Of a stretch of DNA of 64,000 bases, positions 19,017 through 55,499 are shown one piece after another. A program made the position numbers and the translations under genes. The notes beneath the pieces were generated by a model. It was not told the origin of the DNA. It did not search any database and saw only the letters and a list, made by a program, of their open reading frames with translations. Source of the DNA: Colwellia sp. (GTDB lineage Bacteria; Pseudomonadota; Gammaproteobacteria; Enterobacterales; Alteromonadaceae); contig JADGDH010000001.1 in assembly GCA_016745015.1 (NCBI GenBank), positions 6,602 through 70,601 on the forward strand, in the 5' to 3' direction. Position 1 is the first letter of the stretch; the number at the start of each line of letters is the position of its first letter.

Positions 19017-19286
19017 TTAACGACGTAGACCTAATTTACCAATTAAAGCAGTATAACGATCAACGTTTTTGCCTTTTAAGTAATCAAGTAATTTACGACG
19101 TTGTGCAACCATGCGTAATAAACCACGACGTGAATGATGATCATGGATGTGCTCTTTGAAGTGACCTTGTAAGTGGTTGATTTGTGTAGTTAACAAAGCA
19201 ACTTGTACTTCTGGTGAACCTGTATCACCTTCTTTTTGAGCGTATTCTGCAACAATTGCAGCTTTTTCTGTAGCATTTAAAGACAT
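19017..19286 (-). CDS. rpsO: 30S ribosomal protein S15
   Basis: [14 protein letters not shown]...[12 protein letters not shown]. Confidence 0.99.
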
Positions 19287-19392
19287 TATTAATCCTTAGT
19301 GTGAAACTCATCTGTCACCATTTTTACTAAAGCAAGAGAGAGTTAAAATAACCACCCAAGCCAAACACTAATTCAGCCGAGGTAACAAAAGA
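19287..19392 (-). promoter_or_regulatory. S15 autoregulatory leader RNA
   Basis: GCTGAATTAGTGTTTGGC (19377-19360) resembles the gammaproteobacterial S15-leader core GCTGAATTAGAGATCGGC as I recall it. Confidence 0.6.
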
Positions 19393-50941: not shown

Positions 50942-52306
50942 TTATTCTTCTCTAAAAGCTTCAGCATTAAGATGATGTCTATTCAACAATTTATAAAATT
51001 CAGTTCTATTGCGTTGCGCTATTTTTGCTGCTTGTGAAACATTACCAGCAGTTAGCTTTAATAATTTAGCTAGGTAGTCACGTTCAAATTGATCTCTAGC
51101 ATCCTGAAAAGAAGGAAGTTGAGATGTTTTTTCCCGTAATGCTCCTCTTATTAAGGTAGCATTAATTAGTGGCTCTGTGGATAACGCGACACTTTGTTCA
51201 ATCACATTTTGTAACTGGCGAATATTGCCTGGCCAAGGTGCACTAATGAGTAATTCCATAGCTTCAGCTGAAAAACCCTTGATATTTATAGGTGAATTAA
51301 CTTCAACATTCTTTAAAAAATGTTGTGCTAATAAAGGGATATCTTCACGCCGTTGTGATAGTGGTGGCAACTCTAGTTCTACAACATTAAGACGATAATA
51401 CAAATCTTCTCTGAACGTTTTATCGATGATCGCTTGCTGCAAATTTTTATGAGTTGCTGAGATGATACGCACATCTGTTTTTATTGATTGTGTACTTCCT
51501 ACTGGGCGAACCTCTTTTTCTTGTAATGCTCGAAGTAACTTCACCTGAAAACTCATTGGCATATCGCCTATTTCATCAAGAAATAACGTGCCACCATTGG
51601 TCGCTTCAAATAAGCCAATATGATTTTTAGCTGCACCTGTAAATGCACCTTTAGCATGGCCAAAAAGCTCTGATTCTAACAGCTGCTCTGGAATTGCTGC
51701 GCAATTTATTGCGGTAAAGGGTTTGGTTCGACGGTTACTTGCTTGGTGGATCGCGTTTGCTAACAACTCTTTACCCGTGCCGCTTTCACTATGAATTAAT
51801 AAACTAAAATCACTTTGTGCGACTTGATTCGTTTGTTGTAACAAAGACTCCATAATGGCACTTCGGCTAATAATATTCGCACGCCAAGCAAACTCTTTAA
51901 TTGTATGTTGAGTAATTGAAGGATTAAGTTGAATCGCTTTTTGTACTGTTTCTAATAACTCTTGGCTTTCAAAGGGTTTAGTCAAAAAACTAAATACACC
52001 TTGTTTGGTGGCACTTATTGCATCAGGAATTGTTCCATGTGCGGTCATTATAACTACTGGCATATTGGGATGTTGTTGCCTTATTTGTGCAAACAATGCC
52101 ATTCCATCCATACCCTCCATGCGTAAATCACTAATAACCATATGAGGATGAAAACTTTTTAAAATACCCAAAGCAACTTTTGCACTGGCCGCAGATTCAA
52201 CATGATAGTTTGCGGCAGAAAGCCTAATACCCAGTAAACGTAATAAACTAGGATCGTCATCAACAATCAATATTTTTTTCTTAAATTGGCTTTCATTATT
52301 ATTCAT
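50942..52306 (-). CDS. glrR: sigma54-dependent response regulator GlrR/QseF
   Basis: Receiver (VDDD, SDLRM), AAA+ domain with [22 protein letters not shown]-terminal [13 protein letters not shown]; glrK-qseG-glrR gene order. Confidence 0.88.
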
Positions 52307-52311
52307 TTATT

Positions 52312-52908
52312 TTACTGCCCATGTTTACTAATAGCTTTTTCAATTTTTTTAAGCTGAATAATTTTTTTATTAAGTTGATTAATATCTTTCTTAGCTTCTA
52401 GAATTTCAGCTTGCTGTACTGTAATCAACTCTTTAGATTGTTTGTAAGCGCCCTTATAATCATTAAGTTGCTTTAATATCAATAATTGTTGATTAAGTTG
52501 ATCTTTTAGCATAACAACGAAAGCTAAATCCGCAGCATTAAAAACGGAGTATTCATAGGATTCTAACGGATAATTATTTAATTGAGCTTTTGCTGTGTAA
52601 GGGTTGTGAATTGGAGAATTAGGCAAGCTATAGAGCATAATCAATTGCATATCAGCTTTAACTAAACCTGACTGCTTATTATTCTTTTGTCGTGATATTT
52701 CTTGTAAAACCTCTTCATCATTTAAGCTTTTTATCCACAAGTAATAGTGATTAAATTCAACATTTTCTTTGCTTGACTCAGGTAATAATTGACAACCACT
52801 TAAAAATAATAAACTAATAAAAATAATAGAGTAGCTACTGTACCTAATTATTTTATTACCTAAATCACGAAAGCTATATATTAGAAAATGATGTATTAAT
52901 AGTGTCAT
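52312..52908 (-). CDS. qseG: Lipoprotein in QseG/YfhG position
   Basis: Lipobox FLSG-C, C-terminal coiled coil ending KLKKIEKAIS-like; lies between the kinase and regulator. Confidence 0.65.
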   Translation of the reverse strand: MTLLIHHFLIYSFRDLGNKIIRYSSYSIIFISLLFLSGCQLLPESSKENVEFNHYYLWIKSLNDEEVLQEISRQKNNKQSGLVKADMQLIMLYSLPNSPIHNPYTAKAQLNNYPLESYEYSVFNAADLAFVVMLKDQLNQQLLILKQLNDYKGAYKQSKELITVQQAEILEAKKDINQLNKKIIQLKKIEKAISKHGQ

Positions 52909-54422
52909 TATTTATTCTCTACTTTTTTGGCTCTAGGAAGCATAATCTTTACCCAAGTTCCTTTATTATTACCATCATTATTAGTATGTTGGTTAACTAT
53001 ATTTATATCGCCATTGAGTCGCATTAATAACTCTTTAACAATAGTAAGACCCAGTCCACTACCTTTAATTTGGCTATTCTCTGGGGCTGGCCCTTGATAA
53101 AAAGCATCAAAGACTTTGTCTTTTATGTTTGATGAAATACCTGGTCCATAGTCAATAATTGACAATTCTAATTGTTTTTCCTCAAAAGCACTTAAAATTT
53201 CAATAGTGCTATTATTTGGAGAATACTTAATTGCATTAGACAAAATATTGTCTAATATGACTTTTAATTGCTTAGCATTACTATGAATTAAAATATTTTC
53301 TAAGGTTTGATTAATTGTAAGGCCTTTACGCTTAATATCTAGTTTGTGATCGGCTAATACACTTTCTAATAATGGTTGTAATAATATTTTTTCACTGTCT
53401 TGTAAGCTAGTTGAGTCTAAAACAATATTAAAATCTAATAAGTCTTCAATTAAACGTTGTAACCGGTTAACGCTTGCCTTAATTATATGACAAACCTCTT
53501 TTTGTTCGTCATTTAGCTTACCAACACTGTTATCGTAGAGTAGCTCAGTTCCCTCTCTAATTGCCGCCAATGGTGTTTTTAATTCATGTGAAATATGACG
53601 AATAAAACTAGATTTTTGTAATTCCAACGCATGCAAACGTAAACGCATAATTTCAAGTGCATCAGCTATTTCTGTTATTTCTGGCGAGCCTTTTAGCACA
53701 ATTTTATTTTCAAAATCTCCCTGTTCTAAAGATTGAATTTTTTCTATCAATAATTTTAATGGCGTGGTGATTAAAAATATAAATAACCCTGCAATAATAA
53801 AAGTAGCAGGAATAATAAGTAAGCTAATAATCATAGTGTTACTTACTTGCTCTGCAGTTGTTTTTATCTGGTTTGCCTGAATGTTAATTAGATCAATACT
53901 GCGTTGATTTATACTTTGACTAACTTTAGTTAAAGAAACAAAATGAAAATGTATAACTTCTAACGAATTATCTTCAATAAATCTATTGGCAATTAATTCA
54001 TGAATTTTCGAAATAATTATAGAAAAATCGTGACTATATTGACTTAAAGCATCATCATTATAAATCGTTAATTTGCTATTAATCAATTGGAGAATTTGTA
54101 ACTCTTGTACTAAATAATCAGCTTTTAATTCTGCATCTTTTAATACTATATACTGGCTAGCAACTCGCTCTAATTTCAATTTTTTTTCATTTAGTTCACG
54201 GTTAGTTGTTGTTAATGCTGCTACTGAAAATATTGTTTTAGTAGCTTGCTTAGACATTTGGTTGACCTGTACTGCGCTGTAAATTAAAGCAACCACTAAC
54301 GGCAAGGCAACTAACGTGAATCCTAAAAGGGTTAGTTTTTTAATTGATAAGGCACTTAAAGTAAAGACACTATCAAGCGGCTTAATAGTTTTACTTTTTT
54401 TTGTAAACACTTTTGTAGACAC
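52908..54422 (-). CDS. glrK: Sensor histidine kinase GlrK/QseE
   Basis: Two TM segments, HAMP, FIRHISHELKTPLAAIREG, NAIKYS, DYGPG, GSGLGL. Confidence 0.85.
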   Translation of the reverse strand: MSTKVFTKKSKTIKPLDSVFTLSALSIKKLTLLGFTLVALPLVVALIYSAVQVNQMSKQATKTIFSVAALTTTNRELNEKKLKLERVASQYIVLKDAELKADYLVQELQILQLINSKLTIYNDDALSQYSHDFSIIISKIHELIANRFIEDNSLEVIHFHFVSLTKVSQSINQRSIDLINIQANQIKTTAEQVSNTMIISLLIIPATFIIAGLFIFLITTPLKLLIEKIQSLEQGDFENKIVLKGSPEITEIADALEIMRLRLHALELQKSSFIRHISHELKTPLAAIREGTELLYDNSVGKLNDEQKEVCHIIKASVNRLQRLIEDLLDFNIVLDSTSLQDSEKILLQPLLESVLADHKLDIKRKGLTINQTLENILIHSNAKQLKVILDNILSNAIKYSPNNSTIEILSAFEEKQLELSIIDYGPGISSNIKDKVFDAFYQGPAPENSQIKGSGLGLTIVKELLMRLNGDINIVNQHTNNDGNNKGTWVKIMLPRAKKVENK

Positions 54423-54505
54423 TATAGGGCTCTATCTTAGTAAATTTATTATTTGTAAATAGCAAGCTACACCTTTTTAAGCGATATTTGTTCAAAACAC
54501 AACGC

Positions 54506-54644
54506 CGTCGTCAAATAGAGACAGTAGGTGATTTTAACAGTTTTTTATCTTACCTGCTGATTTTTCATTACTTTCTTTGTTTGTTCTTTAAAATATTTGC
54601 AATAAAATTATTTATAAAAAAACAACTGTCTCTAATTAGCAACA
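54506..54644 (+). promoter_or_regulatory. Two GlrR-like upstream activator boxes
   Basis: CGTC-N10-GACA (54506-54523) and TGTC-N10-AACA (54627-54644), each one mismatch from TGTC-N10-GACA. Confidence 0.55.
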
Positions 54645-54688
54645 AGCTTTAAAGACAAAACCAAACAAAAAAACAATAAAACCATTTA

Positions 54689-54701
54689 AATCAATAGATT
54701 A
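54689..54701 (+). promoter_or_regulatory. IHF site
   Basis: AATCAATAGATTA fits WATCAANNNNTTR and lies between the activator boxes and the -24 element. Confidence 0.6.
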
Positions 54702-54707
54702 ACACAA

Positions 54708-54724
54708 TGGCACACCTTATGCTT
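54708..54724 (+). promoter_or_regulatory. sigma54 -24/-12 promoter
   Basis: TGGCAC-ACCT-TATGCT, with GG and GC separated by exactly 10 nt. Confidence 0.7.
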
Positions 54725-54791
54725 TGTTACGTTTGAATTAAAACATTGCGTAATTGTTACGCATTACAACTAACTTCTTAAGGAATTTAAA

Positions 54792-55085
54792 ATGAAAGGT
54801 ATAAGTTTGATTAAAGTAACATTGGCTATTTTTGCAACAACATTATTATCATTAACTGTTAGTGCGGAAGAAGAGCTGCAAGTAAAACAAATAGCAATTG
54901 ACTCATCAGCAACGCAACAAGTACAATTTAGCCAATTAGATTTAGATAAAAATGGTTTACTTAACGAAGCAGAAGTGGCAGCAGACAAACTACTTCATAA
55001 TGCTTTTGCTAAGGTTGATACAAATGGCGATGCTACCATTAACAAAGACGAATATACCGCTTTTATTGAAAACATTAATAAATAA
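54792..55085 (+). CDS. Exported EF-hand calcium-binding protein
   Basis: AGGA RBS, signal peptide ending TVSA, two EF loops DLDKNGLLNEAE and DTNGDATINKDE. Confidence 0.88.
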   Translation: MKGISLIKVTLAIFATTLLSLTVSAEEELQVKQIAIDSSATQQVQFSQLDLDKNGLLNEAEVAADKLLHNAFAKVDTNGDATINKDEYTAFIENINK

Positions 55086-55119
55086 TAATTGATTTTCTAT
55101 TAATTAATTTTCGCAGCTT

Positions 55120-55155
55120 TCCGGCTGTTCCCAACTATATCAGCCGGTTTTTTTT
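55120..55155 (+). terminator. Intrinsic terminator after the EF-hand gene
   Basis: CCGGCTG...CAGCCGG followed by T8. Confidence 0.75.
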
Positions 55156-55166
55156 AAGGTACTATA

Positions 55167-55499
55167 ATGACAGATACAACGTCACGTTTTATACAATTAG
55201 ATAACTGGATATTTGAAGTCAAATCGGTTCGTGCGATCAGAGTTGATAACTATGGAGAACCTTATAGTGCTATTGCTAATTTTAGCTTTAATGGTAACAA
55301 CGTCTACATTGATGGCTTGATGACCCGTGAAGATGAAGACTTCAGTAAAAAAGACTATCAAATATTTTATCGAATGTGCCAAAAACTAGGTATTAAGCAG
55401 GCTCAATTTGATCGTTTAAAAGGCAACGAATTTAAGTTGGATACTGTTGATATTGCACCAATTAAAAAAGAAACAGCTCCATTAAAACTAGTTCGTTAA
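55167..55499 (+). CDS. Hypothetical protein (110 aa)
   Basis: Clean ORF with AAGG RBS and globular-protein composition; no domain recognised. Confidence 0.7.
   Translation: MTDTTSRFIQLDNWIFEVKSVRAIRVDNYGEPYSAIANFSFNGNNVYIDGLMTREDEDFSKKDYQIFYRMCQKLGIKQAQFDRLKGNEFKLDTVDIAPIKKETAPLKLVR

Follow-up and report, generated by a model that had tools for sequence, protein, structure and literature searches.

A stretch of 64,000 nucleotides (nt) from Colwellia sp. (GenBank assembly GCA_016745015.1, contig JADGDH010000001.1, positions 6,602 to 70,601), here called the window, contains a minus-strand operon homologous to the GlrK-QseG-GlrR (QseE-QseG-QseF) three-component system of Escherichia coli. Back to back with it, on the plus strand, lies a gene for an exported protein of 97 amino acids (aa) with two EF-hand loops. 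The 369 base pairs (bp) that separate glrK from this open reading frame (ORF) hold two GlrR-type boxes, a site of the integration host factor (IHF) type and a sigma-54 promoter directed at the EF-hand gene. We propose that the locus is likely the local output promoter of the three-component system, with the EF-hand gene as its target.

The operon consists of a glrK/qseE homologue (52908..54422), a sensor histidine kinase with the Pfam domains HAMP, HisKA and HATPase_c; a qseG-like lipoprotein gene (52312..52908) with the lipobox LSGC; and a glrR/qseF homologue (50942..52306), a response regulator with Response_reg, Sigma54_activat and HTH_8 domains. This order of kinase, lipoprotein and regulator is that of E. 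coli. The regulator is 56% identical to GlrR of E. coli K-12 over its full length (442 aa), and the kinase shares 31% identity with its E. coli counterpart GlrK across 424 aa (E 4e-54). Among NCBIfam models the regulator scored highest with GlrR (628 bits), followed by NtrC (436) and ZraR (381). Its helix-turn-helix (HTH) hardly differs from the one in E. coli GlrR and includes a 10-residue stretch without any difference, so the same DNA specificity is plausible. The lipoprotein matches nothing in Pfam or NCBIfam, and BLASTP detected no resemblance to QseG of E. coli. When its family profile was compared with that of enteric QseG, however, the two matched with a probability of 96.7% (E 3.5e-10, 122 columns) across the C-terminal coiled coil and an L-T-x-I-E-x-Q-L motif. 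These similarities identify the divergent operon as a genuine homologue of GlrK-QseG-GlrR, as it had been named in a preliminary description made from the sequence of the window. Orthologues of glrK are present in many genera of the family, and the genome carries rpoN.

Read from the glrK side, the intergenic region begins with a distal GlrR-type box, CGTC-N10-GACA (54506..54523), centred at about -220 from the predicted transcription start and scoring 19.0 with a position-weight matrix (PWM). The proximal box, TGTC-N10-AACA (54627..54644), is centred at about -98 and scores 24.7. An IHF-type core, AATCAATAGATTA (54689..54701, plus strand), is an exact instance of WATCAANNNNTTR. This core forms the 3' part of an IHF binding site of some 30-35 bp, so a bend would be expected at about -50, which is normal for sigma-54 promoters. 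The -24/-12 element that follows on the plus strand, TGGCACaccttATGCT (TGGCAC-N5-ATGCT; 54708..54723), was recognised by sequence match. It has the GG-N10-GC spacing and differs by one base from TGGCAC-N5-TTGCW, and the start of transcription is predicted at about 54734. A ribosome-binding site (RBS) read from the sequence, AAGGAA (54780..54785, plus strand), precedes the EF-hand ORF. A hairpin in the predicted 5' untranslated region (UTR) at 54747-54763, with a perfect 7-bp stem (TGCGTAA-TTG-TTACGCA), was called as a minus-strand terminator by the scanner and was rejected because the closest relatives do not conserve it.

The EF-hand ORF (54792..55085, plus strand) begins with a Sec-type signal peptide, residues 1-25, that ends at VSA ahead of EEE. 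The two loops, D50-E61 (DLDKNGLLNEAE) and D76-E87 (DTNGDATINKDE), have the canonical 12-residue form, and the Pfam model EF-hand_1 matches with 33.3 bits against a cut-off of 25.4. An alignment of 26 homologues showed that the residues at loop positions 1 and 12 (D50, E61, D76 and E87) are invariant. These homologues have in common the signal peptide M-K-N-I-S-L-K-K-V-T, a variable linker and a short spacer between the loops, 14 residues compared with 24 in calmodulin. The structure model shows a helix-loop-helix twice, and the last 55 residues can be superposed on single calmodulin-type lobes with template modelling (TM) scores, normalised to the target, of about 0.5-0.6. Taken together, a Ca2+-binding role in the periplasm seems fairly probable for this protein. 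The link between calcium handling and envelope-stress sensing that the preliminary description drew is something we only infer.

Exported EF-hand proteins of other bacteria were compared with it. Lanmodulin resembles it in being an exported EF-hand protein with short spacing between loops, and the lanmodulin model NF053806 of NCBIfam gives a weak match. Membership in that family was nevertheless rejected: the match reaches 29 bits against a cut-off of 135, and in lanmodulin there are four EF hands in which loop position 2 is a proline, whereas the Colwellia protein has two loops with L51 and T77 at that position. EfhP of Pseudomonas aeruginosa, a membrane-anchored EF-hand protein, shares with it a Sec signal peptide, canonical EF loops and a link to stress regulation, and differs in its membrane anchor. 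The same likeness holds for CaBP of Caulobacter, a periplasmic, Ca2+-responsive EF-hand protein tied to an extracytoplasmic function (ECF) sigma factor (PMC13171946), which differs in having three EF hands and in that ECF link. Neither CaBP nor EfhP is known to depend on sigma-54 or GlrR. An EF-hand gene has been reported as down-regulated in an rpoN mutant of Bradyrhizobium (PMC13207237).

Conservation of the promoter and its target

Within the GTDB genus, an EF-hand homologue is found in 29 of 36 other genomes, and glrK lies back to back with the EF-hand gene at 27 loci and, on inspection, at two more. Eight genomes returned no EF-hand match, and seven of these lack GlrR altogether; in the eighth, and in one genome whose match lay elsewhere, the glrK/EF-hand pair and its promoter were present on inspection. 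Sampling was extended to thirty glrK loci in some 20 other genera of the GTDB family to which Colwellia belongs. There, glrK faces one to three tandem exported EF-hand genes (90-135 aa) at 29 loci, while the thirtieth ends at a contig edge. Tandem duplication of the EF-hand gene beside glrK was observed at ten loci from several genera, with up to three copies visible at four of these loci and four copies at one, a locus of genus g44 (L084) sampled separately in the order-wide survey.

Comparison of the intergenic regions yielded 89 distinct orthologous promoters, from more than 20 genera, that share one plan: a box, 120-122 bp, a second box, and then either 80-81 or 69-71 bp to the T of TGGCAC. 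The two classes of spacing between box and -24 element differ by one helical turn. In the promoter alignment the -24/-12 element is the most conserved intergenic block. An IHF-type core (at most one mismatch) lies 18-20 nt upstream of the T of the -24 element in 63 of the 89 promoters, compared with 2 of 89 in a control window. Additionally, a conserved block with the consensus TG.TTTTTAA is located between the boxes in both spacing classes (54582-54594 in the window); it may be a second site for an architectural protein or a part of the glrK promoter.

Elsewhere in the order, a locus from Psychrobiaceae contains both the EF-hand gene and the gene for a 110-aa protein that follows it in Colwellia, and one from a further family has the EF-hand gene divergent from glrK. 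The boxes are kept in the orthologous intergenic regions, so that the absence of conservation by which the preliminary description would have been refuted was not observed, and the glrK/EF-hand arrangement extends over Alteromonadaceae, Psychrobiaceae and two more families of the order. The preliminary description had proposed a promoter with GlrR boxes, an IHF site and a sigma-54 element aimed at an exported two-EF-hand protein, and both the anatomy and the conservation fit that proposal. The boxes, the exact IHF core, the -24/-12 element, the ORF and the terminator behind it all lie where they had been placed.

GlrR relatives of 47-63% identity were detected in 93 of 398 genomes scored from other orders. 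Among 40 loci from different families outside the order, a glrK homologue adjoins the regulator in 36, and five of these 36 have a sigma-54 promoter and boxes before an exported two-EF-hand ORF. At one more outside locus such an ORF is present and the promoter was not detected. Two GlrK-QseG-GlrR-like loci from other families of the class have box/sigma-54 promoters before other small envelope proteins, one OmpA/Pal-like and one a 71-aa acidic exported protein.

The terminator and the downstream gene

Downstream of the EF-hand ORF, a hairpin with a T-run occupies 55121..55155 on the plus strand. The stem CCGGCTG/CAGCCGG (55121-55127 with 55141-55147) has 7 bp, five of them G-C pairs, and encloses a 13-nt loop that contains TCCCAAC; eight T residues follow (55148-55155), and the folding energy is -11.5 kcal/mol. 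With a loop of this length it escaped a simple terminator scanner. Hairpin and T-run are found in 38 of 43 related loci. In a 35-sequence alignment all eight aligned stem pairs covary, with changes on both sides and 95% of cells paired, and no shuffled alignment or slid register came near the observed value. Judged by this pattern of substitution, the element is a real terminator.

Only 11 nt beyond the terminator a second gene begins (55167..55499, plus strand). It encodes a conserved 110-aa protein that has no signal peptide and is predicted to be cytoplasmic, and by synteny it is probably the second gene of the unit. Its RBS, AAGG, touches the T-run, and there is therefore no room in the window for a promoter of its own. 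The protein carries the motif W-I-F-E-V-K-x-V-R-A-I-R-V and has no Pfam or NCBIfam match. Its structure model, with a mean predicted local distance difference test (pLDDT) of 82, gave weak matches to GNAT-like folds (E 0.05, TM 0.44-0.50, 67-80 columns); a complete GNAT domain would be longer than this protein. Of 80 loci from named genomes, among them Colwellia, Cognaticolwellia, Thalassotalea and Thalassomonas, 43 have glrK, the EF-hand gene and the 110-aa gene in that order, and in most genera the 110-aa gene follows the terminator.

The transcript had been described as monocistronic, for a 97-aa exported protein with a terminator. Protein and terminator are both sound, but the word monocistronic is doubtful with a conserved gene 11 nt on. 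The most economical reading of the sequence would be a two-gene unit with an internal attenuating terminator, so that the EF-hand protein would be made in quantity and the 110-aa protein sparingly. Whether the 110-aa gene is co-transcribed with the EF-hand gene appears evenly balanced, as a terminator that is both strong and conserved argues against efficient co-transcription and is thus a point against our reading of the locus.

The distribution of the 110-aa gene also allows the roles to be exchanged, so that the 110-aa protein would be the conserved primary output of the system and the EF-hand gene a lineage-specific insertion before it, with the hairpin as an attenuator governing the proportion of the two products. 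At Shewanella-like loci the 110-aa homologue stands alone, divergent from glrK and with no EF-hand gene, behind a promoter with two boxes 122 bp apart and a TGGCTT-N5-GTGCT element. In Alteromonas, Aliiglaciecola, Fluctibacter and others the 110-aa gene is unlinked from glrK; in the three genera named it is located after ilvC. Even so, a sigma-54-like element precedes the unlinked gene by 73-105 nt at 16 of 30 loci, and 12 of the 30 show boxes in addition. The lack of space for a separate promoter behind the T-run speaks for the same exchange of roles. However, the EF-hand gene occurs without the 110-aa gene in four of the family groups sampled in the order (L076, L079, L083 and L084) and likewise in families outside it, the terminator in front of the 110-aa gene is strong and conserved, and the tandem amplification of EF-hand genes in several genera suggests selection on the EF-hand product. 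We regard primacy of the 110-aa protein as a serious but rather unlikely alternative to the EF-hand gene being the principal target.

The hairpin raises a different alternative, namely that the transcript also gives rise to a regulatory RNA, with the conserved 3' hairpin as the body of a 3'UTR-derived small RNA (sRNA) or as a protein-binding element. In that case an RNA regulator would remain among the products of the GlrR promoter, as GlmY is in enterics. While the stem varies with covariation of all eight pairs, the loop (11-13 nt) retains TCCCA(A/G)C at roughly two thirds of the loci, across genera. The hairpin has no further copy in the genome, and Rfam searches of 54380-55220 with permissive thresholds returned only matches at chance level. 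On the other hand, the sequence complementary to the loop, GTTGGGA, shows no excess close to start codons, where 23 of 147 sites fall compared with a background ratio of 0.12, and conserved loops can also be left by shared descent. An RNA product of this kind is considered improbable. A stretch rich in T and C, CTCCC-TTTTT, just before the stem is conserved as well.

A precedent for a functional 3' end is CpxQ, an sRNA cut from the 3'UTR of the cpxP mRNA. The cpxP-cpxRA locus resembles the one described here in that the gene of a small, stress-induced periplasmic protein lies divergent from its sensor system, possibly with a functional 3' end. It differs in that its promoter is of the sigma-70 type and its regulator of the OmpR type, in that the proteins are unrelated, and in that an RNA role at the Colwellia locus is hypothetical.

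Assignment of the promoter to GlrR

From the anatomy, homology, conservation and co-occurrence observed in silico we infer the following course of events. Phosphorylated GlrR would bind the two inverted-repeat boxes, IHF would bend the DNA at the site just upstream of the -24 element, and the AAA+ domain of GlrR would open the sigma-54 promoter. The transcript would encode a Sec-exported protein with a mature form of about 72 aa that contains a single pair of canonical EF-hand loops and is most likely a periplasmic binder of Ca2+. Transcription probably stops at the intrinsic terminator in most cases, and read-through would supply the 110-aa gene. That GlrR, sigma-54 and IHF drive the EF-hand gene is very likely in our judgement.

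Several points weigh against this assignment. Each box is one base off the consensus, and the 628 bits of the regulator fall below the NCBIfam equivalog cut-off for GlrR of 763. On the side of the target, the Pfam pair model EF-hand_7 stays under its cut-off (26.4 against 30 bits) and the structure model is only moderately confident (pLDDT 72). Additionally, the TGT-N10-ACA core is common to other enhancer-binding proteins, for example NifA; as it is not exclusive to GlrR, another activator is conceivable.

This last point, together with the position of the distal box just 84 nt from the glrK start codon, could be taken to mean that the boxes mainly serve autoregulation of glrK-qseG-glrR, or that another enhancer-binding protein fires the promoter, and that GlrR is not the activator of the EF-hand gene. 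The spacing of the boxes argues otherwise, being fixed and in constant helical phase relative to the -24 element while the distance to glrK varies. The near identity of the HTH with that of E. coli GlrR, the joint gain and loss of GlrR and the EF-hand gene within the genus, and the persistence of the box-promoter unit with the 110-aa gene even where that gene is unlinked from glrK all point in the same direction. Autoregulation or a foreign activator in place of activation by GlrR is accordingly very improbable.

A further point against the assignment comes from motif frequencies in the window, which were judged against shuffled sequence: each motif taken singly is at chance frequency. The sigma-54 pattern with at most one mismatch occurs 3 times compared with 3.0 expected, the box pattern 13 times compared with 16.4, and the IHF core 11 times compared with 8.1. 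The draft genome as a whole (3.27 Mb, 36% G+C, 293 contigs, 94% complete) was then scanned for the combination. With consensus patterns, a sigma-54-like site with two upstream boxes was found at only two places. With PWMs trained on the orthologous sites the same two places lead, with combined scores of 43 and 40, and the next site scores 24. Single motifs occur at shuffle frequency and the joint arrangement twice in this genome; it is the combination that constitutes the signal. Chance co-occurrence in an AT-rich intergenic region, to which the frequencies of the single motifs would lend themselves, is ruled out for practical purposes by conservation, since a combination found twice in the genome keeps its order and spacing in 89 distinct loci.

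One of the two places is the EF-hand promoter in the window. The other, TGGCACAGTAGATGCT, is located on contig C41 of the same genome (position 28127, minus strand, within the segment 22000-31402) and has boxes 71 and 171 bp upstream. It is followed by a non-coding leader of about 320 nt, with two copies of the module tatatacact..cac..aaagtgtca..ttttttacag, and then by an operon for three exported proteins of 416, 828 and 529 aa. The first contains a CxxCH motif, the second CxxCH motifs and a LamG-type domain, and the third a Tat-like (twin-arginine translocation) signal. The homologous operon is preceded by this type of promoter in 2 of 17 other operon-bearing genomes of the genus. With this second GlrR-type promoter, the predicted regulon is larger than the preliminary description had it.

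The layout of the locus has a parallel in zraP-zraSR of E. coli and Salmonella, a sigma-54-dependent two-component system in which the small periplasmic metal-binding protein ZraP feeds back on the sensor. In both cases the main target lies divergent from a shared intergenic region, depends or would depend on sigma-54, and encodes a small periplasmic protein of a metal-binding type. The regulators nevertheless belong to different families (381 bits with ZraR compared with 628 with GlrR for the Colwellia protein), ZraP is a Zn-binding helical oligomer, and zraP-zraSR has no QseG-type lipoprotein. By analogy with the layout of zraP and cpxP, the EF-hand protein might conceivably feed back on its sensor.

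GlmY and the direction of change

To our knowledge, work on QseE/QseF (GlrK/GlrR) has been confined almost entirely to Enterobacteriaceae. The known direct targets there are glmY, glmZ and rpoE, and its physiological signal is debated. Searches with the Rfam models found neither GlmY nor GlmZ in the window or the draft genome, with sub-threshold noise of 18 bits on contig C270 and 12 bits on contig C78. As a positive control, the same models recovered GlmY next to glrK both in E. coli and at five enteric-type loci that represent four GTDB families. These models found no GlmY in 14 loci from other families of the order. The earlier observation that no GlmY-like sequence is present thus holds for the window and extends to the genome. 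A second target of the rpoE type, such as exists in E. coli, was likewise absent from the PWM scan of the genome. Elsewhere in the window, Rfam identified an ordinary ribosomal protein S15 leader (RF00114, 58.5 bits; 19230-19384, minus strand).

In Enterobacteriaceae, GlrR recognises the consensus TGTCN10GACA and acts with IHF and sigma-54 at glmY (PMC3045617), and sigma-54 promoters of glmY and glmZ are under GlrR control (PMC6075780). The likeness of the Colwellia locus to glmY, and to glmZ of Yersinia and Salmonella, extends to the sensor module, the box consensus, the IHF site, the -24/-12 element and the location of the target beside glrK. The enteric target, however, is an sRNA, whereas in Colwellia it is an exported EF-hand protein followed by the 110-aa protein. 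The boxes also differ in number. Enteric-type loci have three, which in L070 precede the -24 element by about 125, 188 and 221 bp, and Colwellia has two, 121 bp apart. Orientation differs as well. The preliminary description had implied that glmY is divergent from glrK, but in E. coli K-12 the order is glmY-glrK-qseG-glrR on one strand, so that glmY lies upstream of glrK in the same direction, while the Colwellia target is divergent.

The direction of change needed revision too. The lineage of Colwellia had been presented as the one that was rewired. GlmY, however, is confined to enteric-type families, while EF-hand output was found in Alteromonadaceae, Psychrobiaceae, two more families of the order and, beyond it, at least five others. 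As GlmY is restricted and EF-hand output, though scattered, is wide, the enteric state looks derived, rather than the Colwellia lineage rewired. In two lineages (L079, family f11; L083, family f1, Alteromonadaceae, genus g48) a sigma-54 element and a box precede an EF-hand gene that lies upstream of glrK and reads in the same direction, exactly where and how glmY is placed in E. coli.

Alongside the occurrence of the EF-hand gene in the glmY slot, a more comprehensive reading may be considered, in which the non-enteric GlrK-QseG-GlrR system would be a circuit for periplasmic Ca2+ or other divalent cations and the envelope. Its original output would have been a short-spaced two-EF-hand protein, reporting back to the GlrK/QseG sensor in the manner of ZraP and CpxP, and a small GNAT-like cytoplasmic protein; the hairpin loop would act as a regulatory RNA or a protein-binding element, and GlmY would be a later replacement in the same promoter slot. 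As a whole this joint reading is speculative and unlikely to hold in all its parts.

Surveys have reported GlrK/GlrR beyond the gamma-proteobacteria, with targets unnamed (PMC8895600, PMC3162934). Our literature searches found no paper that links GlrR/QseF with EF-hand proteins or describes this wiring, and nothing relevant on GlrR/QseF in Shewanella, Colwellia, Pseudoalteromonas or Alteromonas. The system described here is of a known regulatory kind, but its output differs and seems not to have been reported before. The locus and its relatives provide a concrete regulon candidate for the non-enteric majority of these systems, consisting of the EF-hand protein, the 110-aa protein and, in this genome, the CxxCH operon. 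One promoter, two boxes and one small protein also offer simple experimental handles. The predicted targets point to periplasmic calcium or envelope chemistry as the business of the system, and their distribution suggests that control of GlmY is a derived, enterobacterial state.

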